From the NCBI GenBank assembly GCA_001724265.1, contig MEDY01000006.1:124001-165813 (forward strand): a DNA stretch of 41,813 bases, given 5' to 3'. The translations under genes and the position numbers were made by a program. The notes beneath the pieces are model-generated. The model saw nothing but the letters and a program-made list of their open reading frames with translations. It searched no databases and was not told where the DNA came from. Below are positions 2 through 41,460 of the stretch, in pieces. Source of the stretch: Rhizaria sp. SCN 62-66. Taxonomy: Eukaryota. The stretch's first letter is position 1. The number at the start of each line of letters is the position of its first letter.

Positions 2-238
2 ATCTCCGCCTCCGCCGCGCTCGCCGCCGCTGCCGCCGCTGCCGCCGCGTCCAGCGACGCCAGCCGCGAGCTGGCGGCAGCCGCACGCCTTGCTCCGAGT
101 GCCGGCGGTGTCGGTGTTGGCGTCGGCGTCGGTGTGCTCGACGTGAGGCAGCAGGACGCGGCGCTCGTGGCCGCAGTGACGCATGAAGCGCTGGAACTCG
201 TGGCGTCGCTCTCTGAGGACGCGTGGCGATACGAGTGA
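2..238 (+). CDS. 3' end of a gene truncated by the window edge; Ala-rich, ends ...ALELVASLSEDAWRYE* (weak resemblance to the APC16 C-terminus)
   Basis: Frame 2 is open from base 2 to TGA at 236-238 with the same GC-rich codon style as the other genes; GC content drops sharply after the stop. Not in the ORF track because it has no start. Confidence 0.7.
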   Translation: MSASAALAAAAAAAAASSDASRELAAAARLAPSAGGVGVGVGVGVLDVRQQDAALVAAVTHEALELVASLSEDAWRYE

Positions 239-6469: not shown

Positions 6470-6502
<33 letters not shown>

Positions 6503-8173: not shown

Positions 8174-8205
<32 letters not shown>

Positions 8206-17501: not shown

Positions 17502-17549
17502 GTCAGTCAGTCAGTCAGTCAGTCAGACAGTCAGTCAGTCAGTCAGTCA
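17502..17549 (+). repeat. (GTCA)n tetranucleotide microsatellite with one interruption
   Basis: About 12 GTCA units with one GACA variant, read directly. Confidence 0.9.
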
Positions 17550-18407
17550 CAGACACAGTCACGATCGCCTTCGCACGCTCTCCTGATCATGATATCAATC
17601 TTTCACCTCTAAACTGTAGCGTCGCTGCTGTTGTTGCAGCTTCTATGGAGTAGGAGTTACAGCGCGCACATGCAGCGCAGCTTTCAAGATTTGAGCAAAT
17701 ATAACTGTAGTCCGCGTCGTCCGGCGTCGATTGCGTTGTTTCTTTTTTCTTGGCTGACTCCTTGCTGCAAGTTGTGCTGACTGATCGAAGTTCTTTCATT
17801 TGAGACGATGTCAATTTGTACACGTGTGTTAAGGGGTCTGTACGATTGTGTTTTGATGTTTGACTTCCTTTTGTCATTCGCCAGTTATCTTAGCTAATTT
17901 CTCCAGTTCTTTGTGTATGCCCAATGTTTCTATACGGTCATGTGTTTCATTGACATGTGTTTATTTCTATCAGCGTTCACCTAAAACGTGTTATTACACT
18001 ACCACTCCGACATCACACCTCAATACCAAAATCGCGACCAAACCATCATGAACAAATGCAGCTGAACCAAACGTTAAACAACAACAATTTCAACCTGTTC
18101 TAGTTGTCGTAGAACCTTTGTCCTGTGCTCGTATTTAAGTACTTGTGCTTTTGTATAAGACTACCAACTATTATTTTGTCTGTTCATGATGTACCTGTGT
18201 CTTGTATAAGTGTGCGTAAGTCCGTGCGTACGTATGTTCAAACAATCCGATGTAAGGATGTGCACTTACCCAATAACCTATCACTGTTGTATTGGTATCT
18301 ACTTAGATCTATTATGTAATAAATAGGTGTATATTTTGTTTTATCCATCAATATGCTCAAACATTTTCGCGATTCGTAATCATTGGTCATATTTGTATTC
18401 ATTTCTG

Positions 18408-18445
18408 GCCCGATATCAGCTTGATAGCCCGATATCAGCTTGATA
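18408..18445. repeat. Perfect 19-bp tandem duplication GCCCGATATCAGCTTGATA x2
   Basis: Copies at 18408-18426 and 18427-18445, just downstream of the UBX gene stop. Confidence 0.9.
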
Positions 18446-18501
18446 GATCGTTGTTGAGACCATCTAGTTTGTACACTTTACACGTCACTCACTAGCGGGA
18501 T

Positions 18502-20244: not shown

Positions 20245-20825
20245 GAGTCTGCCAGGAGAGTGGGGATCGTATAGGTTAAGGTACGAGGTAGGAGAGGGCG
20301 TGGAAAGAGTGAGATAAGGGATCAACGAAAGCGTTTGTGGTCAGGTAGCAATGGATGCACATATACCACACAGCGATGTCCTAGAGACGTATTGTTTTAA
20401 ACACAAAGAAAATAATTCTTAAACATATCGGGCAAAGTTGCTTCAAGCTATTCTTATGATCAGATGTTGCACATTACATCCTGTCCAACTTGATGCATCA
20501 TCACTGCAGTGCGATCTCCATTTTTTTCGGAACCCGGTCGAGGGCAACCACTGCGCGAAGGCCACATTTGCCGTCCGCATAGACTGTTGTGAGCCTTGAA
20601 CAAAACGTCGCTAAAGACGCCATATCACTATAATTTTTAAGCATATCTTGTCCGTTTAATTCCGATTTTACACTCACTCGCAACTTGATCTGTGTCGTTT
20701 CCCGCCCGCTTTCCTTAGCAGTCGCTTTTTCCTTTTACACTACCAACACCTACATCCCTTTCGGCCTCCGTCCCGCGCTTCCCAGCTCCGTTCGCTCCCC
20801 CAGCGCGCCGCCGCCGCCGCCGACA
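20245..20825. promoter_or_regulatory. Divergent intergenic region between the UBX and DHX37 genes
   Basis: 581 bp between opposite ATGs; pyrimidine-rich leaders on both coding strands. Confidence 0.5.
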
Positions 20826-23800
20826 ATGTCCTCGCGCAAGCACGCCGCCGGCAGCGATGGCGACACTACAGAGATTCTCTACGACGAGTCCCGTAACAAG
20901 TCCGCGGTGGACGCCAACGGAGATGTGCTCGTGATGAAGCCCAAGGACAAGAACGCGCCCAAAAAGGTCAAGGAAGTCAAGGGCCCCGTCGCGGCCCCGG
21001 TCTCCAAGACGGTGCTGAAGAAGCTGGCGCGTCTGGAGCGCGAGCACGCGCTGAAGAAGGAGCGCGCCATCTCGCTCAAAGTGGTCAACGAAAACGCCAT
21101 CGACGAAAAGCACCGGCTCTTCATGTCCAAGTCGGGCTCGCTCGGCAAGGCGCTGACAATGAAGGAGAAGCTCACGATCGCGTATCAGGCGCAGAAGCTG
21201 GGCGTGACCGACGCGGACTTGCCGCTGCTGACCCAGGACGCGCTCGACCGCCTACAGACGGGCAACGAGGACGAGGACCTCACCGCGCTCGCTGTCGCCC
21301 GAGCTGAGGCCGCCGGCACGCTTAAGAGCTCCTCGCTCTCGGGCACCACCAACGCGTTCCAGTCGCGCTCCAAGATTTCCCACTCAGCATCTGCGCCCCG
21401 CACCACGATCTCCGGTCTGACCTCCACTGCGGCGACGGCGGCGCTGCTTGCGACTCTGAGCAACGAGGCGTCCCGCGCCGCCACGGCCGCCGCGAGCGCG
21501 AGCGGGAAGAAGGGCGGCAAGGTCGACTACGTCAAGATGGCCGAGGCGATGGTGCCCAACGCGATGGACGTGACGCAGGTACGCAAGGACAAGAAGAAGG
21601 CGCGCCACGCCGAAAAGAAGGCGCTCATCAAGGCCGCGCTCGACGCCACCTCGTCCGACGACGACGGCAACGGCGACAAGGACGGCGACGACAGCGACAA
21701 CGCCGGTGGCGACGAGGGCAAGGAGGCCGTTGTGGCCGTGCCCGCCGCGCTGGCCGGTCTGGTCGGCGCCATGGGCCTCCAGTCGGCGCGCACTACTGTG
21801 GCCCACATCAAGACCAAGGCCACCGGCAAGGGCGCCGACTACGCGCAGTCGGCGGCCGACGCCGCGGCCAAGCCTGCCGCGGCGGGGCGCGGCGCGGGCG
21901 GCAGCAGCAGCGTGCTGAGCAAGGCCAAGTTGGGCCACTCGCAGGCCGCCGTCGCCGCCGCGCAGGCCATCGCGATGGGGCTGGTGAGCAAGAAGAACAG
22001 CTCCAACACGCTCAAGGGCATCTTCGACGCCGCGTCCTTCACGTCCTCCGAGGACGAAGCCAACGGCGCCGAGGCCGCGAGCGATGATGACACCGAGAGC
22101 GGTGAGAGCGATCTTAGCGATTCCGGCTTCCGCCCCAGCGCCAAGCGCGCCCGCGCCGCCTCCGCCCACCCTAACGGCTCCGACTCTGACGATGACTCTG
22201 ACGCTGAGTCGGGGACCGGTTCCGGCAAGCAGAAGTTCGACTCGCTGACCGGCGTTGCGCTGGCCAAGAAGGACATCCGCGAGTTGGCCAACGTGCGCAT
22301 CTCGCGTCCGTTGATGACTGGCCCCACGGTGGTGCACACCGACAAGGCCGCTGTGGCCTCGCAGTCGATCCAGACGTTTGTCGCGCCCGCGGGCGGGTTC
22401 ACCTTCAACAAGGGCGGCGTCAAGCTGCTTATGAAGCCCGGCGCCGCCACCTCTGCCACCACCGCTGTGAACACGGTCACCGGCAGCGCACCCGCCGCTG
22501 CTGCCGCCGTGGCTGCCCCTGTTGTCACCCCTGCGCCTGTGGCCGTCGCCCCCGTCGCCGTCGTCGTCTCCAAGGCCGCCATCAAGGCGAAGGCCATGAA
22601 GGACGCCGACGAGGAAGAGGAGGAAGAGAACCCTTACGCGGTCAAGTTCAAGGTCAAGTCGGCGCGCGCCTCTGCCGTGCGCGCGCGCGTGGTGGCCGAG
22701 CGCGCGCTCATGTCCGACGCCGACAAGCGCAAGTATGACCATAGGCTCAAGAAACGCAAGGGTGCCGTCAGCAAGCTTGCAGGCTCTGCAGTGGGCTTCG
22801 CCGCAGGCGGCGAGTTCGACTCCGAGGATGATGACGAGGACGAGGATGACTCTGAAGCCGACGACGAGGACGACTCTGAGGCTGATGACGAGGACGAGGA
22901 TGATGACGACAAGGATGAGGACGACAGCGATGACGATGAGGACGAGCCTGCTCCTGCTCCAGTCGCCGCCACCAAGTCCAAGTCGACCGCCGCCGCCGTC
23001 GCCAAGCCCAGTGCGACTGCGGCCGCTGTCGTCCCCGCGAAGAAGCCCTCTGCGGTCGTCCCCGCCGCGGGCGGCAAGACGACGGAGCAGGTCGAGGAGG
23101 AGGAAGAGGAGGTCATCGACCGCGCCGCGGGCGTGCGCCGCGTGATCCGCACCGTCACCCGGTCCACGCGCACCGAGAGCGGCGGCATGAAGCGCACCAA
23201 GACCGTTACCACGGAAGAGTTCCCGCTTGAGGACGACGAGGGCAGCGCGAAGAAGAAGGCTAGCAAGGGTGACAAGGCCAAGGCTGAGAGCAAGGGCTCC
23301 AAGTCTTCCGCCGCTGCTGTTGCTGCTGCTGCTGCTGCTACTGCGAGTACGAAGAGTGACAAGAAGAGCAAGGTCCGCTTCGATGGGTCTAAGATGTCGT
23401 TCGAGGAGCTGATGCGGCGCGTGGCTAAAGATCTGAGCCGGCCTCTCAGCAGCGACGACGAGTCCGAGGCCGAGGGCGCGGCGCAGACCGCGGGCGTGGA
23501 CAGTGCCAGCGACGTGGACTCCGCCGAGGAGGACGAGGAGGACGCCGAGGAGGACGAGGAGGACGCCGAGGAAGACGACGACGAGGACAACGAGGATGAG
23601 GACGAGGATGAGGACGAGGATGAGGACGAGGACGAGGACGGCGTGATCGACAGCGAGGACGAGGATGCCGACGAAGCCGCCAAGGCTCGCGCCGAGGCCG
23701 AGGCCGCCGCCGCCCGCCGCGCCGCGGACGTCAAGCGCGTGTCAATGGCGGCGGCCAGCGCCGCTGACGCTGCGGCCCCGTTGAAGCAGAACCCGTTCCA

Positions 23801-26800
23801 CGTCCCCGTGGTTCGCAAGGAGGCGATCCAGGTACGCAACAAGAACAATAACAGCAATATCAATGCTGGCAGGAGCATTCCCGTTACCTCGAACAAGAGC
23901 AATGTGAACGCGAATGTCAACAACCAGAATAAGAACAAGAAGTAATTTATTTGTAGATTCATTATTGAAATGCAATCCAATCCAATGCGGGTTTTGTTTG
24001 AGAAGTTTAACATAAGAACGAGCAATACACACGTTGCAGCGGTGCACGTGTGTGCTTTCGCCTCTTTTAACTAAACTTTACAAGACAAAGCAAAACCAAA
24101 ACATCAAATCTATTTTAATGTACTCTACCAAACTCATCTCTATTCAACTTCGTGTTTGTTAAATCCTCTTCTTTTTTTTACGCCCCCGCAGTCAAGCCGT
24201 CTGCTGCTGCCCGTCGCGGCGCAGGAGCAGGAGGTCATGGAGGCCATCACCGCGCACGACGTGCTGATCCTCTCCGGCGAGACGGGCTCCGGCAAGACAA
24301 CGCAGGTGCCGCAGTTCCTCTACGAGGCGGGCTACGCGCGCGAAGGCCTGCTGATCGCGGTGACGCAGCCGCGCCGTGTCGCCGCGATGGCCTCGGCGAA
24401 GCGCGTCAACGAGGAGCTCAACGCACCGCCCGGGAGCAACCTGGTGGCGTATCAGATCCGGTACGACTCGCAGGTGCAGGCTGACACGCGCGTCAAGATG
24501 ATGACGGAAGGCATCCTGCTCAAGGAGGTCCAGGCCGACTTCCTGCTGCGCAAGTACAGCGTCATCATCGTCGACGAAGCGCACGAGCGCGGGCTCAACA
24601 CTGATGTGCTCCTGGGCCTGCTCTCGCGCATCGCTGCGCTGCGCAACTCGCTCATCGAGAAGCGCGACGCGCTGCTCGCGCGCGGCGTCCCGCTGCTCAA
24701 GGCGCAGGAGCCCGAGCCCGGCGCCAAACTGGCCGGGCTGCCACTGACGGGCCAGTCCGTGTCTGGCGGCAAGCTCAAGGTGATCATCATGTCGGCGACG
24801 CTGCGTGTGACCGACTTCACCGAGAACCCGCGGCTGTTCCCGACGCCACCACCCGTGCTCGAGGTGCCCTCCCGCCAGTACCCCGTGTCAATGCACTTCT
24901 CCCGCGTCACCACGCACGACTACGTCGAGAAGGCGCTGCAGAAGGTTGCACGCGTGCACGCGCGCCTCCCGCCCGGCGCCATCCTAGTTTTCCTCACCGG
25001 TCGCCAGGAGATCGAGGACTTTTGCCGTGAGCTGACGAAGATTTTCCCCCCGCCGACGCAGGAGCAGCTGGAGAAGCTGCAGGCCGCGCGCGACCAGGAG
25101 CAGAAGGCCGCTACCGCCGAAGCCAACGCCATCACCCACAACAAGGACGGTGCCGACGCCAAAGCGAGCGTGAACGCTGACGGCGCGGTTGTGACAGCGA
25201 GCGGCGCGACTGTGGGCCGTGTGGTCAAGGGCCGCGACGGCAAGGTGATCCTCGGCAAGGACGGGCAGCCGCTGATGGTCGGCCACGACGGCAAGGTCAT
25301 CCGCAACAACGCCAGCGCCGCCGCTAGCAGCGACAGCGGCAAGAAGGACGCTGATGCCAAGAGCAAGGGCAAGAGCGGCTCTGGCGGCAACGCGGCTGCG
25401 AAGCGCAAGGGCGTCACCCCGTTCACGGACGCTGAGCTGCGCCGCATTGAAGCGGGCGAGATGACCGACTCTGACGCCGGCTCCGGCTCTGGCTCGGACT
25501 CCGAGTCTGAGTCCGAGTCCGAGTCCGAGTCCAAGGAGGGCGACGCCAAGGACGGCGCCGGTGTTGCCATGACTGACAGCGCGAGCGGTGGCTCCGTGGT
25601 CACCGACGCCGACGCGGCGGCCGTCGCGGAGGCCGAGGCGATGTTCTTCGAGCTCTCCGACGACGAGGACTACGTGGGCGGCGGCGACAGCGACGAGGAT
25701 AAGCTCGACTCTGACTCTAGTGACAGCAACGATGACGATGACGACGACGCTGAGGGCTCGGAGTCCGAGTATGAGGCTGGCCCCGACGGCGAGATGATTA
25801 AGAAAGTTAAGCCGCCCAAGGCGAACAAGAAGGTTCTGCCTGAGAGCGGGATCAAGAAGAAGAAGGGGGAGTCCACGCTCGACGCCGAGACGCGGTCCAA
25901 GTCGTCCATTTCGGGTGATAAGTGGGCTGCTGAGCGCGCGGCCCTCATCGAGCAGAAAGACAAGCCGCCGATGATCGTGCTGCCGCTGTTCGCGCTGCTG
26001 CCGACGGAGCAGCAGATGAAGGTGTTCGCGCCCTCGACGCACAACTGCGGCGCGCGCGTCGTTGTCGTCTCCACCAACGTCGCCGAGACCTCGGTCACGA
26101 TCCCCAACGTGCGCTACGTCATCGACGCCGGCCGCGAGAAGACCAAGCTGTACGACCAGTCGACGGGCTCGTCGCGCTTTGCCGTCGGCTTCATCTCGCA
26201 GGCCGCGGCAAACCAGCGCGCCGGTCGCGCCGGTCGCGTCGGGCCGGGTCACGCGTACCGCCTCTACTCCGGCGCGGTGTTCGGCGAGCACTTCATCAAG
26301 CACACGCAGCCCGAGATCCTGCGCCAGCCGATTGAGGCCACGGTGCTGCAGATGAAGTCCATGGGCATCCGCGACGTCGCCGCCTTCCCGTTCCCGTCGC
26401 CGCCGCCGTCGCTGGCGCTGCGCGAGGCCACGCGCACGCTGCACACGCTCGGCGCGCTCACCGTCGCCGACCCGGATCTTGCGCGCAGGCTCGACGCGCT
26501 CGCCACGGCCAAGATGGCCGCCACGGCCGCGACTAACTTGGCGGCCGCGCAGACCGGCCGCGCCGCGGGCATGCCGGGCTCGCTCGCCGAGGCGCGCGTG
26601 GCGGCGATCGCGTCCAGCGTCGCGGCCCGCAAGGCGCGCGAGGCGGCCGAGAACGGCGGCATCGGCAGCGCCGAGAGTCTGTTCCGCTCCGGCATTGTGG
26701 GCCGCGACGGGCGCCGGCGGCTCGCCAACGGCAAGCTGGCCCCGCGCGCGCGCATCGCTGACTACGGCGACGACCGCGACGACTTTGGCAACGTCGTCGA

Positions 26801-29417
26801 GGAGGCCACTGGCATCACGCCGCACGCGGTCGTCGATCAAGGCCCCGCGTGGGGCTTCGACTACGACGTCGCCGCCACGGCCGCCGCGCTCGCCGTGACG
26901 CCCGCCGGCCGCGCCATGTCGCTGTTCCCGCTCCACCCGCGGTTCGCGAAAATGCTCATGATGGCAGCGAACCAGGGCATCACGGACAAGAGCAACGCCG
27001 CCGCCGCGGCGGCCGCGAGCGTGTCTGCGGGCGGCGCCGCGGGCGTCAAGGGCGAGCAGGCCGCACTTCTGCCGCTGGCCGTGATCGTGGCCGCAGTGCT
27101 GACGGTGAGCGAGATGATCGTGAAGCCGCGCGTGCTGCAGCAGTTCGAGGACCGCGAAGAGGCGGAGAAGCGCCGCATGGCCGGCGTGGCCGCGAAGCAG
27201 GACAACGGCAACGAGCGCAGCGACGAGGAGAACGACGACGATGCCAACGCAGGCAAGGGCAAGGGTGACGACGACGGCGACGACTACGACGACGGCTTCC
27301 CGCCCCTGGGCGAGGAGAATAGCGACGACGAGTACGACCCGCTCGTCCGTGAGCGGCGCGCGCTGGCCGAGGCCCGCCGCATCGCCAAGGAGGAGAAGAA
27401 GAAGGCCAACGCGGCCGCGGAGGAGGCGCGCCGCGTCCGCATGCGCGCGCTGCAGCTCAAATGGGTGACCTCGCGCGCCAAATTCGCCGTGCCGCACTCG
27501 GACACTCTTACGGCGCTGCGCGTCGTCGGCGCCTACGTGCACCTGCGGCAGACGCTCACCGACAAGTACACCCGCGCTCTGCAGCGTGCGCGCGCCGCCG
27601 CGGGGACCGCCGCCAGCGCGGGCAACTACAAGGGCAAGAAGAGCGCATTCGAGCGGCTCCCACTGGCCGTGCAGCGGACGATCAACGCGAAGCTGCTTGA
27701 GTTCTGCAATGACAACTTCGTCCGCCCCAAGGCCATGGGCGAAGTGCTGCTGCTGCGCGACCAGCTCACGCGCATCGTCATGCAGCGCCTGGCGGGCGCG
27801 CGCGCCGTCGCCCCCGCCGCGGCCCCCAAGCCCGCCGCTCCGAAGAACAACAACGGCACCAGCGCCGCGCTGGAGCAGTCGCTGATGTCGACCCCCGCAA
27901 GCGCCGCCAGCAACGTCGATGACGGCGCTGACGGCGAGGCCGGCGCGGCCGAGAACGGCGTGTTCAGCGGCGGCGTCGGCGACATCACGGCCGCGCTTGA
28001 GTCCGGCGATGCCGACGAGGCCTACGACGACCTGTTCGCGGACACCGAGGCCGCCGAGGCGGCTGCCGAGGAGGCCGCCGCCGCCGAGGCCGCGGAGGCG
28101 GAGGCGGAGGCGCGCGCCGCGGCGATCATGGCGGCCCCGGTGCAGGGCAAGGAGCGTGTGTACGAGACGGGCGGGTTCAAGATCAGTTCGATCTCCACCA
28201 ACGCTACAAAGCCCGCAGCCGCCGCCGCCGCCGCCGCCGCAAGCGCCCCCACTGCGCCGGCGAGCGGCGTGACCGCGACCGTGAATGGCAAGGTGGTCGC
28301 GCCCGTGGTGGGCGAGTGGGAGCGCGCGCGCCGCAGTCTGTTGGCCGCGCTGACCAACCCGACGCTCTCGGTGCCGACACCGCACCAGGAGCTCGCGCTG
28401 ACGCAGATCCTCCTCACGGGCTTCGCCGACAAGGTCGCGCGCAAGATGACGCAGGAGTCGAAGCTGCTTACCATCCAGAACAGCCACAAGTACCCGCAGA
28501 TCCCGCGCCGGCGCCTCAAGGCGATCCGCGACGAAGAGCGCGCCAAGGAGGAGGCCAAGAAAGCGCTGCTGGCGAGCATCAAGATTAAGGTCGGCGGCGC
28601 GCGGCCGACGCTGATGGCGCCGCCCACGGGCCCGCAGGACGTGGCTGATATCCCGCTAGACCTGTTCGACCTCGAGGGCGCGTACGAGACGCTCGATGGG
28701 ACCGGTGAGCCTGTGTTCCTGTCGCCCGATTCGGTGCTGGCCGACACACTGCCCGACTTTGTGTGCTTTCACGAGCGCAACACGCACGTTGGCCGCCGCA
28801 ACCGCACCATCATCGCGGGACTGACCGCCGTCAAGGCCGAGTGGTTCTCCACCCTGGTCCCGCCCACGGTCGGCCTGCTCTCGGTGTCGGCGCCGCTGGA
28901 GGAGCCGGCGCCGGTGTGGGACCCGCGGTCGGACCGCGTGGTGTTCTGGGTTGGCGTCACGCTCGGCCCGCGCATGTGGCCGCTGCCCAACGCCAAGCGC
29001 CAGTACGAGGACTCGGTCAAGGTCATCACCGTCCCCGCAGTCACTAACGGCAGTCTCAACAACAAGGCGGGCGGGAACGCGGCGGTGAAGCACCGGAAGA
29101 TCTTGGTCAAGCCGCCGGTCTACTACAAGCAGTTCGCGCGCTTGCTGCTCGAGGGCCACGTCGTGCCGGCGCTGCGCGCGTTCCGCCCCTTCTACGTCGC
29201 CAAGACCGGCTCGCCGCTGGCCGTGCCCACGCCCGCGGCGGCGCTGCGCCTCGTCGAGGAGATTCGCAGCAACAACATCCGCGGCGTCGAGGACCTGCGG
29301 CGCATGTGGGCCAAGCCCGGCGCCAACGGGGTCAAGTTCCTGCTCGAGGAGTTTAGCGCCTTTGTGCACCCGAGTAAGAAGGCCGAGATCGCGGCGATGT
29401 GGCCTCCTCTCAAGTAA
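20826..29417 (+). CDS. DHX37: DEAH-box RNA helicase DHX37/Dhr1 (SSU processome), ~2743 aa with large acidic/Ala-rich insertions
   Basis: Exons 20826-23831 and 24192-29417 (8232 nt, TAA). Motifs GETGSGKTTQVPQFLYEAG, TQPRRVAA, YQIRYD, DFLLRKYS, DEAHER, SATLRV, FLTG, STNVAETS, QRAGRAGR; Dhr1-type N-terminus (SGSLG..TMKEKL) and acidic insertion in RecA2. Confidence 0.9.
23832..24191 (+). other. Spliceosomal intron of DHX37 (360 nt)
   Basis: GTACGC...CCGCAG; join RKEAIQ|SSRLLLPV restores the conserved R..LP pre-helicase segment. Confidence 0.9.
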
Positions 29418-31055: not shown

Positions 31056-31836
31056 TTCGGCACCAGTGCGCTGAGCGCGCCGCCCGGGCTGAAGGACACT
31101 CTGTGGAAGACGGAGCTGTGCGTGAACCACGAGCGCGGGGGCTGCCGCTACGGCGCGCACTGCCGGTTCGCGCATGGTCCCGCCGAGCTCCGCGCAAGGT
31201 ACGCACGCGTAACGTGAAATTCTCGCGATATACGACGATCAATATCACGGTAAACTATGTATCGTATGTATTGTGGTAGTACAGAGATTGTCTTAAAGAT
31301 TATTTTTAAAATGCACGTTCATAACGCATTAAGTCGGTTCTTATGTGGTTTTTTTTGCTCGTTTCTCACTGTGACATTTCGATGCTATGCTTAGGGTGCG
31401 CGAACTGGGGTACAAGTCCCAGCCCTGCCCAGACCCCGTGCGGCCGCGCGGCACGCAGGCTTTGCTGGCGATGTCGGCCACGCCCAACACGCTCCTCTCG
31501 CAGCAGCAACAGCAGGAGAACAGCAGCGGCGGCGGCGGTGGGAATGCGGGCGGCTACTTCTCCTTCAACGTCAACGCGCCAACGTTTAAGTCCGGCGGCA
31601 CTGGCGGCGGGGGCTGGGGCACGCCTGGTGTAAGTACCCCCTTACACGGGAACGGCGGCGGCGGGCACTGCGCGTACGCGGCGCGGTGCGATTACTGCCA
31701 CCCGGGGGAGGCGCTACGGCGCGTGTTGCCAGGATCGAAGCTCGCCGCGCAGGGCACCTACTGCGACGCCGAGTACACGGCGTACATCAAGGAGGAGTTC
31801 CCAAATAACCCCGCCCCCTGGGGGTTCTATGTCTGA
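29772..31836 (+). CDS. TIS11/tristetraprolin-like tandem CCCH zinc-finger RNA-binding protein with a Q/S/G-rich N-terminus, ~622 aa
   Basis: Exons 29772-31198 and 31395-31836 (1869 nt, TGA). Finger 1 WKTELC-x7-C-x5-C-x3-H; 18-residue linker ending YKSQP; finger 2 C-x80-C-x5-C-x3-H. Confidence 0.82.
31005..31055 (+). repeat. Perfect (GGC)17 coding microsatellite (poly-Gly)
   Basis: Read directly; lies just upstream of zinc finger 1. Confidence 0.9.
31199..31394 (+). other. Spliceosomal intron of the CCCH gene (196 nt)
   Basis: GTACGC...GCTTAG; join ELRAR|VRELGYK gives the canonical 18-aa inter-finger linker. Confidence 0.88.
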
Positions 31837-31996: not shown

Positions 31997-32443
31997 TCAC
32001 AGCTGCTCGCTGCTGACAGGTGCAAAGCTGTTCATAGCAGGCGCTATCATCGTTGTCCGCGCCGCAGCTTCCTTCTCCTTCAGTTGCACCGCTGCCTCCC
32101 GCGCTGCAACGGCGCTCTCGCGCTCACGCAGCGCGGCTTGCCTTTGATCCGACGCGGCCTGACTTTTCTCCACCGCTGCGAGACTCTCCTTGCACGCGGC
32201 CTGGTTTTGTGCCAGTGCAGCTTGGTTCTGCGCCAACGCGGCCTGACTTTTCGCGAGCGCGGCTTGACCTTGCGCCAGCGATGCTTCATTGTGTGCTAGC
32301 AAGGCCTCGCGCTGCGCCAACGCTGACAGCTTGAGCTCAACCTCTGCGCTCTTACGCGACAGCTCACGCTCCAACGCTTTCAGTTGCGCCTCTTTTTGGG
32401 CTAACATGACGAGCTGGGTTGTTACAGATGTTGCTGACTCTAG

Positions 32444-32479
<36 letters not shown>

Positions 32480-34735
32480 GGAGGATGATAAAGTTGGTGA
32501 CGGTAACGGCGCCTGTGCTTCAGCCAGCAGTGGTGACGGCTGTGTTGTTGCATGCTGCAAGATCGAGCCAGTCGTGTGCGTCTCATCAACAACAGCGGCA
32601 TTAACCCCGCCATCGTCACTCGCAGCGTGGATATCAGTGTTCACAATTGTGGTAGAAACGCTGTTCGTGGCCGTGATATCATCCCTGCCGCGGTGTGTCG
32701 GCGCCGGACTCAACAGCGACGACACGTGCTTCTGCTTAGGGGGAGCGCCCTCCTTCGCATTCTCCTTTGCATTCTCATTCGAAGCAAGCGTCACGACAGC
32801 GTCTTGTGCGGCTGCGCTCTGCTCCCGCTGCAACAACACCTGCTCTCGCGATGTGAGCGCCCGCTGCTCGTACGACAGCACCGTGCGCTCATCGCCAGCC
32901 GCAAGCGTCTTGCCGCCATCGCTGCTAGGAGATGCAAACCCCTTGTTGTTACCAGCGTCATGACTATACGTCCCCTTCGCCGTCAACAGCGTTGTCGGCT
33001 TCAATGGCGCCGGCGGCGTCAACGGCGTCGGCAATGTCGGCGGCGTGAGGACTTCGGCAACCTGGCTGATCGCCAGCACCTCGGCCACACTCGCGCGCTT
33101 GGTCGCGTCGACGACGAGCATGCGCGCCGCCGCCGCCGCCAGCGCGCGGCTGTAGGCGTCGCCGAGTGGCGCGTAGCGGCCGCGCTGGATCTTGGCGGCG
33201 AGCGCGTACTGCGTGAGCGCGTGGAACGGGGGCGCGCCGGTGCACATCTCGTACACAAGGCAGCCCAGCGCCCAAACGTCGGCCTTGGCACCATAGCTGC
33301 GGCCTAGGCACTGCTCGGGCGACATGTAGTACGGCGTGCCCACGTGCGTGCGCGCGCTGTCGGCGGCGCTCGCCAGCACGCGTGCAAGCCCGAAGTCGGC
33401 GAGCTTGGCCGCGACGGCGCCGTGGTCGCGGGAGATCAGTTCGTGCGTCGCCGCTGCCCTCGCGGCGCTCTTTGCCGCCGAGTCGTCCGTGTGAGCGGCA
33501 CCGTTGCTGCTGATGTTACTGCTGCTGTTCGGCGGCGTCGCGGCGACCGCGAGGAGGATGTTCGATGGCTTGAGATCGCGGTGCAACACCGCTGTACCCG
33601 TGGGTCGCGAGTGGCACGACTGCAGCGCAGCGGCCACGTGCGCCAGGACGCGCCACACGAGCGGCTCAGGGAGGCACGCTGTCGCAGTCGCGGTTGCGGG
33701 CGCGGCGTAGAGCGGGTTCGGCCTGGCGCGGCTGGCAGCGGTCGCGCCGCCATTGGCGTTGGGTCGCGAGTAGTACTTGATGAGAGAGGTCAGATCGCCT
33801 GCGTCGCAGTACTCCATCACGATGAAGATGCGCCGGCGCTCGCGGTCGATGATGCGGTCGTGGTAGCGGACGATGTGGGGGTGGTCCAGCTCGCGGAGGA
33901 TGTTCACCTCTGCAGGAGACGCAAACACGCGTTTAAACAATGAAGACGAGGATCGCCCAAAAACGTATCGTATAAGCACAATAGTCGTGGAATTTAAGAA
34001 TTTAAAAAGACACAAGCTGTAAATTGCGCGATATATGTTATTCAAGTCATTGATGGAGTGCGATTGGCGCGTACCTGCGACGAGCTGTGTCTTTTCGCGT
34101 TCGCTCATCCCGCCGTAGCACAGCTCTTTCCACACGAACACGGCGCCGTCAGCGCGGCGCCGAACCTTGGTGACGCGGCCGAACGTGCCCTCGCCGATGA
34201 CGGCGAGTTCCTCGTACGACGATAGCGAGGATGACGGCGACGACGATGACGGCGACGACGGCGACGGCGACAGCTGCGGCGGCGGCGGCTGGTGATGGTG
34301 TTGTTGCTGCTGAGAAGGCGACTGAAGCATCGAGTGTGGCTGCTGCTAATGCTGCTGGTGTTGTTGATGATAGTAGTTGTGATGGGGCGGAGAGGTTGGC
34401 TCGTAACTTGCTTTAGCGCGAGGTGCGACTGAGCTAACTGTGTTCATGTTGAGTAGCGTGCGGTGCTTCTGTTGCTGCAACTGCTGTTGATGGAGCTCGA
34501 GGGCATGCGCCGCTTCGTATGCGTGGTTATAGCGGTGTTCTTGGCCCTGCTGCTGTCCATAATGTCCCTGTTCCTGGTGGTGATGTTGGTGAAAAAGTTG
34601 CTGCTGCTTCTGTAAAGAAACTGAAGCAGCCGAGTGAGGGCGAGCGCCGCCATACAGCTGCTGTGCCGTGTCTGCTTGCTGCGCCGGGCGAAAAGCTGCG
34701 GAGTGCAGCGGGACAGCGGCTGAATACCTGCTCAT
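31997..34735 (-). CDS. NEK2: NIMA-related kinase (NEK2-like) with C-terminal coiled coil; ~857 aa if the in-frame TAG at 34346-34348 is decoded, otherwise starting at ATG 34330
   Basis: Exons 34735-34075 and 33909-31997 (TGA). Motifs GEGTFG, FVWKELCYGGMSEREKTQLVAEVNILREL (NEK2-typical), IVMEYC, HRDLKPSN, DFGLAR, GTPYYMSPE. Upstream Q/H-rich ORF 34346-34735 is in the same frame, separated by one TAG. Confidence 0.85.
33910..34074 (-). other. Spliceosomal intron of the NEK gene (165 nt, stop-free in frame)
   Basis: GTACGC...CTGCAG, AT-rich; removal restores QLVAEVNILREL. Confidence 0.92.
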
Positions 34736-35841
34736 ATCAGCGCTGGTGAGTTGTGAGTGCTTAGTGTAGCACGCTCACGAGTGAGAAGCTGACCGGATGG
34801 TACAGGAAATAAAACTTCGAATATCGAGACCAAAAAGAGTATGTTGAAAATACAATTGAGGAAATAGTAATGAAAGGCCATTTTAATACAGCGACAATTG
34901 CGTATACTTGACGTGGCGGTGACTGTGTGTCACAACGATTGTCTTTGGTAGCAGCATCTCAACGAACGTCTCACAACGGCTCTCGAGTCGATGTTGCTCC
35001 CGGTCATGCGTAAGATGATATTGGCCATTATAAGCGCGAGGATGATCAACTCATACTAAAAATGGCATAAGCCGACTGCATTCGGAACATATCTCTGTAT
35101 ATTATCTTGGTTCCACGCATACATCTTCTCCGGAGACACTGCCACAGTGAGTGACCCACTCCCCTCCTGACGCAGAGATTTCCGTCAATCTCGCGTTGAT
35201 CGTGCTCGGTGCGAAGTGCGGAACCCATGTTGCTTCGAGAGCTCTGGTTTAGGTACTGCATCATATGCGTGCGGTTGCGGTAGTGCCTGTTGTGGACTCA
35301 CTGCTTGTCCTGCTCCTGTCCTTCGCGGGGTTCATGCCGCAGTGATGACATTCGTACTGCTGTGCATATATTTGATTCTGGGGCCACGGACGATTGTCAA
35401 TCGGCTCTTATTACGAACAACATAGGATATTCAAGATAACCTGTGTAAATGTAATAAAACAAATCAATTTAATGTCAGATAATAGTACGAAGAAATATAT
35501 TTTCTTAAAAAATAATGTTTGCTCGAAAATGTAGCCTTAAAATTATACGTGTACGTATACAAGTCACCAGCAACCTCATAGTTGGGTAAAATATGGGTTT
35601 TATTTCGTTCTTTGAATAAAATATCGAAAAATTGGTTGTGTCGATAACACGTGCTACATATAAAACAGCCCTTTGTCATTCTCTTTCGCTCGCTCACCAG
35701 CATTCACTCGCTACACAACGCAAGCACTTATGACACTGAGGTTAGAGTGGGGCATGTGAGAAGGAGAAAGGGTACGACACCGGGGCTTTGTCGGGTGTGT
35801 GGGGGGTTGGTTTGAATGGTTAATGTGCTGCGGCGCAGTGC

Positions 35842-36478
35842 TTACCGGGCGAGGTACTCAAGAGCTGTCAACAGGCATGCGGGAGCAAGCAACGGTCACA
35901 TAGTGGGCGAAGAGAAGGAGCGCGCAAATTGGTGAAACGTGAGCATAAAGGGTCGTAGATTGATGTAAAACTTCGCGTTAAAATGCATGACGTCAATGAA
36001 TATCTTCTGAAAGAGTATTGGGTTCATAATAAAATACGCTGCTGAGATATAGCGAATGTAGCAATGATGCATGAGAGAATGAGTCTGTGTGAAGAGTGAA
36101 CGTACGACGGCGCTGGCGCATCTTGTAGAGGATGCGGTAGCCGCAGCTGTGGCAGACAACGTTGTCAGCGCCAAGGGTAACCTGGTTCTGAGTAGAGCAG
36201 GCTAAGAAACGCAACCGAGAGATCGCGCGTGCGAGAGAGATTGGGGGAAAGGGGCAGTAGGAAGGAGAGTGAGCGAAGGGTAACAATGCATGCTCTGACA
36301 AAGCGAAACGAAGTCGAGACAGGCTGCGGGAGAAACAAAAGGGTAGAGAGAATGAAGACGTACAGCCACAGATGAAGCCGGAGGGACGGTTCTCCTCGCG
36401 GTAGTTGCGGGTGAGGTGAGAGCCGATGACAGCCTTGGGGGCAGCAGCCGCGGGTGTGGTGGTCGCGGTCTCAGACAT
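35842..36478 (-). CDS. RPB12: RNA polymerases I/II/III shared subunit RPABC4 (RPB12/POLR2K), 77 aa
   Basis: Exons 36478-36364, 36201-36106, 35864-35842 give ...GFICGSCSTQNQVTLGADNVVCHSCGYRILYKMRQRRPLEYLAR* (TAA): zinc ribbon CxxC..CxxCGYRILYK and terminal AR. Confidence 0.93.
35865..36105 (-). other. Spliceosomal intron 2 of RPB12 (241 nt)
   Basis: GTACGT...TGACAG; supplies the conserved C-terminal EYLAR*. Confidence 0.88.
36202..36363 (-). other. Spliceosomal intron 1 of RPB12 (162 nt, stop-free in frame)
   Basis: GTACGT...TCTTAG; removal restores the first CxxC (CGSC). Confidence 0.9.
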
Positions 36479-37050
36479 GTCTGCGCGCAAGACAAAAGAC
36501 ACATGGGATGTAATAAAGAGAAATGTTAGAAAATCGTATCTAAAATGACTGGGTGTCGCGGCACAAGCGAATGACGGAAGCAAGATGATCAGAATTGGTG
36601 TGAAGAAACAACTCCGCGACGGCTTCCGAGAACTAGGCCCGCCAGCCACGGTCGCTGGGCGCCTCTGTGGTGTAGCCTAATTCTACATGCAACTTCACAT
36701 GATCAACATTATCCGCACTATATTCCAGGGAATTCAATTTATTTTTGCAACTTTTATATTAATCCGTTTCTCATTTCCCACATGACGATATAAGCCAAGT
36801 GTCCCGACCTCTGCCCACGCCTCCACCCCCCTACTCTCACCACTTTCCCGCGTCCATCCCCATTCGATCCTCACCCGCGCTATCCATCATCCTGGACTTC
36901 AATAGCGATATCAATTGAATATCTTGGTTTTACGAGTGGTTATTACGTGGTTATTTAGGTTTTACGTCTTAACCCCTCCACGGGGGCGACATACCCCCCT
37001 AATTCGCGTTCCTGGCACCCAGCTGCAACAGCTCTCGCACCCTCGCTCCC
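36479..37050. promoter_or_regulatory. Divergent intergenic region between RPB12 and RMI1
   Basis: 572 bp between opposite ATGs; AT-rich core near 36720-36780 and a C-rich leader on the + strand. Confidence 0.5.
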
Positions 37051-40000
37051 ATGCCACCGCAGCAGCGCCCGCAGGCCCGCGCCGCGCCCGACCCAGCACT
37101 CGTTTCCGCCGTTGTCGCCGCCCTTCGCGCGACGGGCTTGCCCGCCTCCGAGCCCTGGCTGCTCTCGTTCCTCGCCTCACACCCGCACCCGCCGCCGCCG
37201 CTCCCTGCCAGCGCCGCCAGCGGTGACGCCGCGGGCTCGACCGCGCTGGTGCCGGCCGCGCGCGTGCCGTGGTGCCCGGCGTCGCTGTACTTTGCGGGGT
37301 ACGCGGCGCTGATGGACCTGGACTGGGCGGACCCGGCGGCGGACTCGCCGGCGCGCCTGCTCAGCCCTCTCGTACCACAGCACAACAACAACAACAATTA
37401 CAACATCAATCACAACAACAGTATCACTCAGAATGATAAAGGCAGCAATAACGCTGCTGGCTTGTTATATCCAGCTCCCATTCAACCTCCCCAGAACAAC
37501 AGCAGTCTCGGTCCCGCTTCCACAGCTCTGGTCCCAACAACGTCATCGTCAGTCGGCACTAGCTCGCATCCGCAGGATACGGCGACCGCCCCTTCATTTT
37601 CCTTCGCCGCGGCGGCGGCCGCGCAGCCGTGGGTGCTGCGGGGCCCGCTCGTTGCGCAGGTGGCCGCGCGCCGCGACGTCGCGCACTGCGCGCAAGACCG
37701 CGCCAACGCGCGCGCGCGAGCCGCCGAACGGGAGAAGGCGCGCGCCGACGCCGAAGCGCTCAAACAGGTCGCCGCCGCGGTCGCGGTTGCCGGCAGCGCG
37801 GGCGCCAGTAGTGGCGCTGGCGCGGGGTTTAAGGGAAAAGGCAGGGGCAAGGGCAAGGCAGGCGATATTGCAAACGCGAGCGCCGGTGATAATGAGAGTA
37901 GTGCAGTTGTTGTTGCGGCTGTGCCGACGGGAGTCGTGTTTGGCGTCGATTTGAACACAAAGGACGACGACGACAGTCTCGGCAACGGCCTATTCGGCAA
38001 AGGCAAGGACACCGACGATGACGACGATGATGGCGACAAAGACGACGTCGACTTGGCGTTGCTTTCTAAGCCGCAAATGAAGCTCAACTTCTGCTTCGGC
38101 GGCAGCGCAACGGGAGTTGGAGTCGAAGTCCTGCCGATCCAAGGCATCTCAACTGCGCCGGCACCCGGACTGCTGCTACCGAACAACGTCGGCAACAACT
38201 ACACTCAACCCTTCCCGTCGACATCGTCAGCCGCAAGCTCCTCCGCCTCAGCCTCAGCCTCTGCCTCCGCGACTGCAGCAACTGGTGGGTTGAGTGCGAG
38301 CGCGACGTCGGCGTCCCCGCTGCTGTACCTTTGCGACGCGCTGACGCGGGCGCGCGCGGCGAGCGTGGGCATGCCCGCGACCGCGCTGGCGCACCGGGCG
38401 GCCACGGCCACGCGAAAAACTACCGTGATCACGCCCAGCGGCCCGAACAACCCCGCTAACACCAGCCATGCTGACAATGCCAACGCTGTGGGATCTGGAG
38501 GCGTGAAGGGCAGGGGAAGCAAAGCCATCGCTGCCGCTGCTGCTGCCGCCGCAACTGCTGCTGCTCCTGGCAGCAGCGCGGCGGGCAACGCCAGCGGTGC
38601 GGCGGGCAGCGCCAGCGGGGCGATCGCGGTCGGCAGCGGCGTCGTGCTGGTGCGGCCCACGGTCAAAGTGCTGCTAACCAACTGCCCGGTGCACGTGGGC
38701 CTGCTGCTGTTGGATCCCGCGAACTGCTACCTCGTGCCGCACCCGCCCACGGTCACGCCCTTACACCTGACCCCATTGTATCGGCACAACAGCGCGAAAC
38801 ACGGCAAGTTCGGTGGCGGCGGTCTCGACCCCGGCTCGAGTGTTGCCGACGCTCTCAGTGGAGTGAGTGGTGGTCCCGCCAGTGGCAGTGGACGGGGCGC
38901 GCAGTTGTGGGCGCAGTGGATCCCCCACAGCCAGCTCAGCCTCGCTCTGATTAACGCCACTGCTCACAGACACTTGTTCTCTGCCTCTGCTGCTGGCTCT
39001 GCGACTGCGGCTGCGGCAGCTCGCGGTCACAGTATCCCGCCGCCACAGCCCGTGCGCGTGCCCGCCGCGTGTGTGGCCGAGCGGCCGGTCGCGCACGGTT
39101 TCCCGGCCCCGGTGCCGTGGCGCGGCTGGGAGGAGCGCGAGACGGCCCGGGCCAAGGAACACGAGAAGGAACTCGAGGCCAGGGCCAAGGAACAGGATGC
39201 CAGGGTGAAAGAGCATGAGGCCGCGAAGGCGAGCAGTGTGTCGCTGTACACGCGGCAACGGGATATTGTCCCCAGCGCGGGTGCGACCGCCAACACAAGC
39301 GCCACCACGAACCTGAATGCCATCAGTAGCGCAACTGCGGGTGCGTCTGTTGCTCTGAATGCCACTGCTGCTTCTTCGGCAGCAGTAACGGGCAATTCAA
39401 GTGCTGATGTGGGCAGTAACAGCAGCTTCGCTTACGGAAACAAAAGCACCGTCAACCCCAGTCACGTTAACGCCAACGGCACTGTTAGTAATGCTAAGAG
39501 CTTTAACGCATATTCCGCAATGTCTTCTATCTCTTATGATCTCAAAATACGCAATCACAACGTCACAATGCGTGACAATGACAACGACAGAGACAGTGAC
39601 CTCGAGATTACTTCCGTGTTCACTCAAAAAGACTCTTTCACGCAAGGTAAAGAAAACATATGTCGTGCTTACGCAAGCGCGGGCTTCAAAGTGGAGCAAC
39701 AGCAGCAACAACAGCATCTAGGGCAATACTAGACACACCTTAGCTCGAGCTCAAGCATTGCCAACTACAACGGAAGCTCTAGGTCAAGCTCCAATGCTAG
39801 TCCTCCTGCTGTGGCCGGTGATATTGTCGTCGCGACTGCCGCAAGCGTCGCCGTCGCCTACACCGCCGGCTCTGCCGCCTTCTTGCACTCGCTGGGCGTC
39901 CCCTCCACCGCTGCCGTGAGCGCGGGCAGCGAGTTTATGGCGACTCTGCCGCTGCCCAACGTGCCAGCAAGCTTTACACCCGGGCAGAGCAGCGTGCTGC

Positions 40001-41460
40001 GGCGGAAGAGCAGCTGGAGCAAGAGCCAGGGTCAGGGCAGCAACGACAACAACACACAGCTGAGCCGGAGCCAGAGCCAGAGTCGGAGTCAGAGCCCGAG
40101 CCAGAGCCAGAGCGACATCAATGCGAGTCCCAACGAGTTCGAGACCGAGGCTGACGCTGCGCTGCTGTGGCTCGAAAAACTGCTGCCTTCATCACGCCTG
40201 CCGCTGTTCACGTTGTTCTTGGTGCTCATGCACAAACTCTCCAACGTGTCGTCGACTCAAGCTACAGCAGCGCCGCTTGCAGCCGCAGGCGCCACTACAA
40301 AGACTGTTGAGGCGGCGTCGGCAGCGGATAACGCCGCTTTCACAACGGTGTTAACCGAGGCGGAGCTGGCCACCGCGGCGCCTCTCGCTGACATCATTAC
40401 AGCGCGCACGACTGCTGCTGCGGTCATGAAGCAATTCTGGCCCACGTGCGGCTTGACTTCTCCGAATGGCGGCCTAACTTCTCCGACGGGATCTGACTCC
40501 GCACCGGCAATTTCGCCGACTGCGAGTGGTGTTGTCGCCGGTGCGGTAAGCGTGTGCATCACTGACCCTGTTGACATAAAGACGTTCACGATTGTTCCTA
40601 CAAGCAACGCGAGCAATTCGGCAGCGGCGACGAGCCGTGAGTGCGTTGCACTTCGGATCACGCACTCACACTGCTATTGTGCTGCTAACAACGCGCACAT
40701 CAATACCAACTCTTATAACAGCAGCAGTGCGACTTCTGCGAGCGCCACTGCTGGTGACACTTCTGCGCTCATGTGTCACATTTGCTCTCAGGCACGGGAG
40801 CAGCAGCAACAACAACACCGCTCGCAGGCGCTGTTTGAGCACGATGTCGTCGATGTGCTCTGTGCGCCTCCTCGCGCGCGGCTTACTTTGAATTCCCCTG
40901 TGCGGCTGAACTTCCCCGCGCCGTGGCAACTCGCGCAAGCGTGGTCGCGGTGGACGCATCAAGTCCTGCGCTGGATTAGTCTGAGCAGTGCATTTGGCGC
41001 TAATGCTCTCGCGAAAGCCGGCGCGGCGGCAGCAGCGGCGATAATGGCGGGCGACAGCGACGGCACTCTGTGGGAAGCAATCGTGATGTCCACTCTCCAC
41101 GCTGCAATCCTCTCGCGCGCCTCCACGGCCGCTGACACGGCATTAGCAGCAGCAGCAGCAGCAGCAACGGCAGCGTCACCCGCAGCGGAGGACGGGCCGT
41201 GGGCAGTTCTCACGGTTGTGACCAAGGTCCTGAGGGTGTTGGTGGCGATGCAAGGCAAACTTGTGTTTGTGCCTGTCACGCCTGCGCGCGACATCAAGCA
41301 CAACTTCCTCGGTCTGCAACAGCCAGTAGCAATGGGGGGCGCGAGTGCGAATGTTACTGCTTATGGTGGCGTGAATCGTGCGAACGCTGTTGTCCCGCGC
41401 GAGTCGACGAGGCTGGCTTTGTCTTTCAATGTTTGCGCAATTGCGGAGCAACTTGAGTAA
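37051..41460 (+). CDS. RMI1: RecQ-mediated genome instability protein 1 (RMI1)-like, ~1469 aa, one reading frame containing an in-frame TAG at 39730-39732
   Basis: N-terminal RMI1 elements: LPASEPWLLSFL, LRGPLVAQV..RDVA, QMKLNFCFG..GVEVLPI, VKVLLTNCPVHVGLLLLDPANC. The frame resumes directly after the TAG and runs to TAA 41458-41460 with weaker RMI1_C-like elements (PLFTLFLVL, IITART, VSVCITDP, LRVLVAMQGKLVF). Confidence 0.7.

Follow-up and report, generated by a model that had tools for sequence, protein, structure and literature searches.

Two in-frame TAG codons in an uncultured GC-rich wastewater protist do not establish a reassignment of UAG

Two in-frame TAGs do not establish that UAG has been reassigned in the uncultured, GC-rich wastewater protist studied here. 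Ordinary stops and recent nonsense mutations account for the two TAGs better than a changed genetic code, because there is so little sequence to go on: our tests of the code cover the window, i.e., the whole 41.8-kb stretch of DNA that was analysed. We consider it probable that UAG has kept its role as a stop in this organism, and rather unlikely that it is translated. The genes in the window have a GC content of 0.6-0.7, and a tree of the helicase DHX37 places the organism, weakly, beside a rhizarian; it is without a close sequenced relative.

The two TAGs in independent assemblies

Both in-frame TAGs that an earlier inspection of the letters (hereafter, the sequence-only reading) had pointed out are present in the window, one at 34348-34346 (minus strand) in the leader of a gene for a NEK-type protein kinase and the other at 39730-39732 (plus strand) in an RMI1-like gene. 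It is extremely unlikely, and already largely refuted, that these are sequencing or assembly errors or represent a minor allele of a true CAG. Both sites lie in repetitive low-complexity DNA and the sequencing depth there is low (about 5-9), as would suit an error; however, the suspected CAG did not turn up in other data. The X2 and X3 contigs, which cover 33793-34526 and 38907-41391 with 0 differences from the window, read TAG unbroken at both sites; the two probably represent one data set, since the lengths and depths of their contigs are identical. The X4 contigs, from another study, read TAG at both sites as well. They cover 34259-35820 and 39111-40079 with 1 difference each (at 35289 and 39748), and these SNPs of their own lie away from the TAGs, the one at 39748 being 16 nt downstream of the RMI1-like TAG. 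Furthermore, P0002 (777 aa) was called identically on 4 contigs and P0162 (549 aa) on 6 contigs, in each case with a start just behind the respective TAG. The TAGs are not assembly errors, and their constancy across independent assemblies is in line with a translated UAG.

Coverage by the contigs of X6, a poly(A) RNA library, stops at 34334 and at 39711 and starts again at 39753, and none of these contigs bridges either TAG; stretches that this library leaves uncovered say nothing about the TAGs. One of its contigs (34004-34334) crosses the 5' junction of the NEK intron unspliced, and the library may therefore hold DNA or pre-mRNA. Relatives were found in P0042 (78% identical over 666 conserved columns) and in P0044/P0163 (on 337-kb contigs), and scans of metagenome and viral contigs returned no DNA of relatives. 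A scan of genome contigs yielded 80 loci, which were rejected as relatives, all of them being bacterial kinase loci with 25-38% identity.

Gene ends, codon usage, and introns in the window

As the sequence-only reading had it, the window contains nine gene ends, none of which is TAG (5 TAA, 4 TGA). The TGA ends are located at 236-238 (plus strand), 18502-18504 (minus strand), 31834-31836 (plus strand; CCCH zinc-finger gene), and 31999-31997 (minus strand; NEK gene, stop confirmed). The TAA ends are located at 2306-2308 (minus strand; a giant gene with a Lactamase_B and cNMP-binding C-terminus), 16460-16462 (plus strand; GAF-domain kinase), 29415-29417 (plus strand; DHX37 helicase), 35842-35844 (minus strand; RPABC4, three exons), and 41460 (plus strand; the frame behind the RMI1-like TAG). 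A tenth ORF end, TAA 23945, was discarded as a gene end, being inside a 360-nt intron of DHX37, and had therefore rightly been left out before. The TAG bounding the ORF 2306-3949 was likewise rejected as a signal of the code, since a normal intron has its acceptor there. In two AT-rich stretches (1-2300 and 16463-18500), no gene was credible, even when TAG was taken to encode Gln.

If UAG is translated, which we regard as doubtful, it would be either a rare sense codon, resulting from an early or low-efficiency reassignment of UAG only with a tRNA of CUA anticodon, or the object of efficient natural suppression. Going by the NEK context, it could stand for Gln, and UAA and UGA would stay terminators. 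The absence of UAG as a genuine terminator (0/9) is one mark of a UAG-only code and favours this reading. However, TAG typically represents 20-25% of stops, and with this share 0/9 would arise by chance with a probability of about 0.08-0.13, which makes it a weak test. Also in favour of translation, both in-frame stops are TAG, and no gene model has an in-frame TAA or TGA, consistent with what had been reported.

The frequency of TAG points in the other direction. Only 2 in-frame TAGs occur in the window's approximately 9,000-11,000 codons (previously put at 2 in roughly 10,000), and none is in a conserved domain; the other mark of a UAG-only code, i.e., many in-frame UAGs including some at conserved columns, was not seen in the 41.8 kb. 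The well-modelled genes contain 0 TAGs in 6,654-6,902 codons, as compared to 307 CAG/CAA codons (269 CAG and 38 CAA) in 6,902, and TAG, if it encoded Gln, would therefore make up less than about 1% of their Gln codons. This absence counts for UAG as a stop. Both TAGs are found in low-complexity tracts without a Pfam domain, which bears out the earlier statement that neither is at a conserved column. The two genes concerned are those whose codon bias is weakest, with CAA accounting for 20/65 and 23/55 Gln codons (1/69 in DHX37). While this placement counts for ordinary stops, the restriction of TAG to the two weakest-bias genes would also be expected of a poorly decoded codon. The window is without a tRNA gene (ARAGORN, 0; Rfam, 0 matches), and this, together with the far greater number of in-frame UAGs in known reassigned lineages, counts for UAG as a stop. 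The gene for eRF1 is likewise absent from the window.

The TAGs could also be removed or changed in the RNA, through frame-keeping introns with non-consensus splice sites or through RNA editing, but this is very unlikely. Frame-preserving GT..AG pairs do exist (73 across the RMI1-like TAG and 49 across the NEK TAG), one verified intron, that of NEK, is itself in frame without stops, and the ORF-bounding TAG of another gene has proved to be a 3' splice site. However, the donor GTACG, common to 8/8 verified introns, is found in none of these GT..AG pairs, and the candidates have a GC content of 0.43-0.62, whereas verified introns are AT-rich (for example, GC 0.38). Furthermore, both flanks of the RMI1-like TAG score as coding. 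Splicing had been named as a check on the reassignment, and no intron with the GTACG donor can remove either TAG, which favours translation.

The TAG in the leader of the NEK gene

The main ORF of the NEK gene (31997-34345, minus strand) encodes a protein kinase domain (Pfam Pkinase, E = 4.5e-42) followed by a coiled-coil tail, and its 165-nt intron (33910-34074, minus strand; ends GTACGC...CTGCAG) interrupts the kinase motif between ...KTQLVA and EVNILREL. "NEK" as a subfamily name goes back to the sequence-only reading and to motif resemblance, with no curated model behind it. P0006 and P0040, which had appeared as close NEK homologues (68-71% identity over a short stretch), were rejected as such, being generic NEK2-like kinases with 31-33% identity. 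The alignment of P0006 with the gene product spans the whole kinase domain, and in P0006, a typical NEK relative, this domain begins at residue 4; a long N-terminus is therefore not needed for NEK.

The TAG (34346-34348, minus strand; ...CAG CAG CAT TAG CAG CAG CCA...) is codon 130 counted from an upstream ATG and lies approximately 45 codons upstream of the kinase domain. The next ATG (34328-34330, minus strand) follows 5 codons later and starts the 777-aa product P0002, which includes the whole kinase domain. The frame had been described as continuing for hundreds of codons; this holds downstream of the NEK TAG, with 782 codons, but upstream there are only 129 codons to the ATG and 139 to the next stop. 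These 129 codons (34349-34735, minus strand) form a Gln/His-rich open frame of ambiguous coding status. Their codon score of -0.13 is below 48/48 true-frame windows (minimum 0.34) and above 96/96 off-frame windows, and is near the -0.23 to -0.33 obtained for a non-coding, GC-rich leader that belongs to another of the window's genes; the chance of such a leader being without a stop was P = 0.046 in a simulation, which is weakly significant.

The score outside the true-frame range and this P value count for an ordinary stop, and so does the whole Pkinase domain obtained from ATG 34330. The NEK TAG has an ordinary reading, namely that of a leader stop before an ATG giving a complete kinase, and this weighs against a translated UAG. 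Conversely, the upstream ATG (34735; GAT ATG AGC) is situated at an AT-to-GC boundary and is followed by Ser, a Met-Ser start shared by 5/7 other first ATGs listed, which supports translation and counts against an ordinary stop. If ribosomes started at this upstream ATG, termination at the TAG would be an obstacle to NEK production, which is a further point against the ordinary-stop reading.

The TAG in the RMI1-like gene

The stronger of the two cases is the RMI1-like TAG (39730-39732, plus strand; ...GGG CAA TAC TAG ACA CAC...), which is codon 894 of a 1,469-codon reading frame. It is preceded by an ORF of 893 codons from ATG 37051 (37051-39729, plus strand), for which the label "RMI1" is tentative: the Pfam match to RMI1_N_C, the RMI1 N-terminal OB-fold (PF08585), comprises only 26 residues (profile positions 105-130 of 146) and, at 21.2 bits, is below the cut-off of 23. 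A sequence search of the PDB gave no RMI1 match for the product. Towards the TAG, the last 110 codons have a higher AT content and encode many N, S, and T residues; their codon score is 0.49, and the probability of their containing no stop is 0.0115.

Behind the TAG, the frame is open for 575 codons. The first 68 of these (39733-39936, plus strand) are without an ATG and show coding-type codon usage, their score of 0.51 being at the 5th percentile of 94 true-frame windows, above 188/188 off-frame windows (maximum 0.14), and above the GC-rich non-coding leader with which the NEK leader was compared. The rest, from the first ATG to the TAA (39937-41460, plus strand), encodes an orphan protein: word-index and full HMMER searches for homologues retrieved nothing besides the ORF and P0001, an allele of it with a 10-residue deletion. 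No real match was obtained in Pfam, the PDB, or the Atlas, the last of which has the sequence and no model, and an AlphaFold single-sequence model of 40420-41457 reached a mean pLDDT of 34.9.

The coding-type usage directly after the TAG speaks for its translation, but the site is compatible both with translation through UAG and with a nonsense mutation of recent date; with 575 codons open and 68 codons scoring as coding, any nonsense change must be recent. It is quite unlikely that the TAG is instead the ordinary terminator of an 893-residue gene and that a separate gene starts at ATG 39937, which would give a TAG stop in 1/10 genes. In line with such an arrangement, the RMI1-type N-terminal match is wholly before the TAG, the 330 nt that precede the TAG have a raised AT content (GC 0.42-0.47) like that of promoter regions, gene callers treat the downstream ORF as a separate protein (P0001, P0162), and GC-rich leaders exist in the genome, as upstream of the giant gene's ATG. 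However, the downstream ORF shares the upstream frame (a 1-in-3 chance), and the 68 codons in between are without stops (P = 0.196) and coding-type in their usage. Moreover, the spacer would have 204 nt and a GC content of 0.60, as compared to 355 nt and 0.31 in the one clear tandem pair, DHX37-CCCH.

Termination or translation at UAG

On balance, we lean towards UAG still being a stop and the two TAGs having separate, ordinary causes, although which proteins are made is a step that we infer. In the NEK gene, the TAG would close the Gln/His-rich leader frame 5 codons before ATG 34330, from which a complete kinase, with 722 residues after splicing, would be produced; the leader may be a 5' UTR, a uORF, or what was once an N-terminal extension, separated from the kinase when a CAG changed to TAG. 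The RMI1-like TAG would be a premature stop within a linker of low complexity that follows the RMI1-type N-terminus. It would go back to a nonsense change that took place recently and is fixed in the population sampled, and the 575-codon frame left behind it would be intact and still coding-like. Several observations count against the ordinary-stop reading. Two interrupted frames among nine genes are many for chance nonsense, both interruptions are TAG while none of the terminators is, and the TAGs are fixed in X2/X3, X4, the allele P0001, and the 4 and 6 contigs.

The alternative, to which we give a clearly lower probability, is that the organism decodes UAG, with Gln as the probable meaning, and retains UAA and UGA as stops, and that it thus represents a further, independent, early, low-usage UAG-only change. 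Under such an early change, terminators might already have been purged of TAG, and its entry might so far have been confined to weakly expressed low-complexity coding regions, a scenario that we likewise find rather improbable. If UAG is translated, the organism adds one more to the very few nuclear codes separating UAG from UAA, offers a rare view of reassignment at low codon usage, and bears on the routes of stop-codon capture (ambiguous intermediate versus codon disappearance); it would also change metagenomic gene prediction for every gene of the organism and its relatives. If UAG is not translated, the two sites represent an ordinary pair of leader or nonsense stops, and the main warning is that two in-frame stops in low-complexity tracts are too few to call a new code.

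Comparison with known systems

The two sites resemble stop-codon readthrough or UAG suppression in that a single UAG is followed by a long coding-like open frame. However, readthrough extensions are usually short and readthrough gives no expectation of absent TAG terminators, whereas here the extension has 575 codons and 0/9 terminators are TAG. Furthermore, folding of 120 nt from each TAG revealed no readthrough-stimulating RNA structure (z-scores of +1.02 and +0.66 vs shuffles). Like ordinary premature, uORF, or leader stops, each site has one stop within a tract of low complexity and weak constraint and, as in leader stops, the NEK ATG 5 codons downstream yields a complete domain; unlike ordinary stops, there are two cases in nine genes, both TAG and fixed in all assemblies, and one of them with a 575-codon frame intact.

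Concerning code changes in sainouroids or rhizarians, a literature search gave nothing new beyond Panek et al. 2017 (PMC5304391). According to that paper, UAG encodes Gln in Iotanema spirale and Leu in the rhizarian exLh. It lists 384 in-frame UAGs for one set of 71 genes and 204 for another of 126, i.e., 1.6-5.4 per gene, many of them at highly conserved columns, and terminators comprising 56 UAA and 15 UGA, or 104 UAA and 15 UGA, with no genuine UAG end. The window is like these cases in having in-frame UAG and genes that end in UAA and UGA, and unlike them in that its nine long genes contain 2 TAGs, neither of which is at a conserved column; its TAG density is lower by an order of magnitude than in the UAG-reassigned lineages described there, which argues against a translated UAG. 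In phyllopharyngean ciliates, known from metagenome-assembled genomes, UAG encodes Leu or Gln and UAA is kept as a stop; each genome has 1,131-2,431 in-frame UAGs at conserved sites, and two of the genomes have tRNA(CUA) genes (PMC11687900). Our DNA shares its metagenome origin with these cases, but, with a GC content of 0.6-0.7 in its genes, the organism differs from the ciliates and their AT-rich genomes.

Gene content and gene ends

The window is eukaryotic, with a GC content of 0.6-0.7 in genes and 0.3-0.45 in introns and spacers, and since its DNA was found in bioreactor and wastewater metagenome runs, the source organism is uncultured. Nine genes were recognised, and, as had been claimed from the sequence alone, none of them ends in TAG. 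TGA terminates four: a partial gene (238), an orphan gene (18502), a CCCH zinc-finger gene (31836), and a NEK-like kinase on the minus strand (31997). The remaining five end in TAA: a giant multi-exon gene of at least about 2,900 codons (2306-11037, minus strand; TAA at 2306), a protein kinase with three GAF domains N-terminal to it (11732-16462, plus strand; TAA at 16462), DHX37 (20826-29417, plus strand; TAA at 29417), RPABC4 (35842), and an RMI1-like gene on the plus strand (41460). When the first in-frame stop 3' of these nine ends and of a tenth ORF end (TAA at 23945) was determined, TAA was found seven times, TGA three times, and TAG not at all, an absence that has little meaning in so small a sample.

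The giant gene encodes Lactamase_B (metallo-beta-lactamase fold) and cNMP-binding (cyclic-nucleotide-binding) domains, both at its C-terminus; this pairing is an architecture known from the Dictyostelium cGMP-stimulated phosphodiesterases. The approximately 340 nt 5' of its first ATG (11040-11380, minus strand) have a GC content of 0.5-0.73, yet contain stops in all three frames, and represent a leader that is GC-rich and non-coding or else an upstream exon that has escaped recognition. In the GAF-kinase gene, the GAF assignment has an E-value of 1.3e-58, and one intron lies within the kinase domain.

Introns and the DHX37 gene model

Conserved motifs in the proteins or the continuity of ORFs allowed eight introns to be verified. 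They measure 130-360 nt, are without exception AT-rich, and all start with GTACG; the donors lie at 15575, 23832, and 31199 (plus strand) and at 4095, 6190, 34074, 36105, and 36363 (minus strand). This 5' splice site is unusually uniform and may be useful for gene prediction and for recognising the lineage. The longest case (23832-24191, plus strand; 360 nt, GTACGC...CGCAG, GC 0.38) interrupts DHX37: its removal unites the ORFs 20634-23945 and 24075-29417 into a single gene and fuses a conserved helicase motif, joining ...VVRKEAIQ to SSRLLLPVAAQEQEVMEAI... in a product of 2,743 residues. The TAA at 23945 falls inside this intron and was rejected as a gene end. The product has an N-terminal extension of approximately 1,000 residues. 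It also contains acidic and Ala-rich inserts of great length, and these recur in P0042, a protein of a relative.

The NEK intron (33910-34074, minus strand; 165 nt) contains no stops and keeps the frame. A contig from the poly(A) RNA library X6 (34004-34334) is unspliced through its 5' junction, which points to a retained intron, pre-mRNA, or DNA within the library.

Relatives of the source organism

Public metagenomes contain at least two related uncultured organisms, one of them on 337-kb contigs, and the relatives are known as proteins only. Gene calls of the source organism itself were found on contigs of up to 168 kb. P0042, from a 20-kb contig, shares long inserts with the DHX37 of the window and is 78% identical to it across 666 conserved columns, while P0044/P0163, from the 337-kb contigs, is more distant. 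In a DHX37 tree of 19 rows, these sequences and the window form a clade with full support, which adjoins the chlorarachniophyte Amorphochlora (SH-aLRT 90) and lies apart from opisthokonts. Because the taxa of this tree were restricted to the top matches from one search, it does no more than hint at an affinity with Rhizaria or SAR.

Two in-frame TAG codons

Both TAG codons reported by the sequence-only reading, at 34348-34346 (minus strand) in the NEK-like gene and at 39730-39732 (plus strand) in the RMI1-like gene, were located in frame at these positions. They are genuine rather than errors of sequencing or assembly, as the same reading was obtained from assemblies of other runs. Contigs of X2 and X3, which match in length and depth and therefore probably represent one data set, span 33793-34526 and 38907-41391 without any difference from the window. 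Contigs of X4, from another study, span 34259-35820 and 39111-40079 with one SNP each (35289 and 39748), both away from the TAG. Furthermore, gene calls begin directly behind the TAGs on four contigs for the NEK product (P0002) and on six for the product of the ORF behind the RMI1-like TAG (P0162), and P0001, an allele of the latter with a 10-residue repeat deletion, has an identical start. The deletion lies in a Ser-Gln hexanucleotide repeat (40070-40111, plus strand), the length of which differs among assemblies and at which many foreign contigs pile up.

The possibility that the TAGs are spliced out was addressed through the GTACG donor. None of the 73 frame-preserving GT..AG pairs around the RMI1-like TAG and none of the 49 around the NEK TAG has this donor, and GTACG was found neither on the gene strand 3' of 37303 nor on the minus strand between 34218 and 35353. 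Contigs of the RNA library bridge neither TAG, and no RNA structure was found 3' of either of them. We regard other RNA-level explanations as highly improbable.

The NEK TAG lies five codons 5' of ATG 34330, from which a product with the whole kinase domain is encoded; in a typical NEK relative, this domain begins at residue 4. Upstream, 129 codons are open between ATG 34735 and the TAG. This ATG is situated at the turn from AT-rich spacer to GC-richer DNA and is followed by Ser, as are five of the seven other first ATGs listed. With a codon score of -0.13, the leader ranks lower than any of 48 true-frame windows (minimum 0.34) and higher than any of 96 off-frame windows, and it resembles the GC-rich, putatively non-coding leader of the giant gene (-0.23 to -0.33); in a first-order simulation, 131 codons stayed stop-free in 4.6% of trials. 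Since the evidence for coding in the leader is thus weak and the kinase is complete from ATG 34330, the NEK TAG is explicable either as a leader stop of the ordinary kind, in frame, or as a nonsense change within a dispensable N-terminal tract.

The RMI1-like TAG looks as if it lies inside a single continuous coding region. The 110 codons 5' of it form the sole open frame (0, 1, and 12 stops per frame; P = 0.0115) and have a codon score of 0.49. The 68 codons 3' of it lack an ATG and score 0.51, which exceeds every one of 188 off-frame windows (maximum 0.14) and corresponds to the 5th percentile among 94 true-frame windows. From the TAG onwards, 575 codons are open up to TAA 41460. While the nine accepted stops are followed by another in-frame stop within 6-38 codons and by a GC content of 0.30-0.55 in the next 150 nt, the next stop after this TAG is 576 codons on, at a GC content of 0.60. 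A separate gene downstream of the TAG is therefore unlikely, which leaves either a nonsense mutation that is recent and fixed or translation through UAG. The assignment to RMI1 is itself weak (21.2 bits, below the cut-off of 23). For the ORF behind the TAG, a homologue search matched only its own allele, searches of Pfam, PDB, and Atlas returned no matches, and a single-sequence structure model did not yield a confident fold (pLDDT 34.9).

Assessment of UAG as a sense codon

The sequence-only reading had proposed that UAG is translated, probably as Gln, while UAA and UGA remain stops. This would fit several observations: both frame interruptions are TAG, in-frame TAA or TGA is absent from every gene model, TAG is missing among the terminators, neither TAG varies among the assemblies, and the RMI1-like TAG is hard to account for through gene structure. 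However, the missing TAG terminators have a chance probability of roughly 0.1, neither TAG occupies a conserved column, and the 6,902 codons of well-modelled genes contain no TAG, compared to 269 CAG and 38 CAA. Of all genes in the window, the two that carry a TAG show the weakest codon bias: CAA accounts for 31% and 42% of their Gln codons, compared to 1 of 69 in DHX37. This is compatible to the same degree with a rare codon that is decoded poorly and with genes under weak constraint. Searches for tRNAs and other Rfam RNAs in the 41.8-kb window found none.

From approximate likelihoods, taken together with how rare such codes are, we consider it probable that UAG is a stop and that both TAGs have ordinary causes. 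The observation of the two TAGs withstood every check that was run. Nine genes are too small a sample, and the NEK site, one of the two, has an ordinary reading; a variant code is an unlikely, minority possibility. Known cases point in the same direction: phyllopharyngean genomes are given with more than 1,000 conserved-site UAGs each (PMC11687900), compared to none in the window, and the rhizarian exLh and Iotanema spirale with 5.4 and 1.6 in-frame UAGs per gene, respectively (PMC5304391), whereas the window, with two per about 9,000-11,000 codons or 0.2 per gene, is far sparser.
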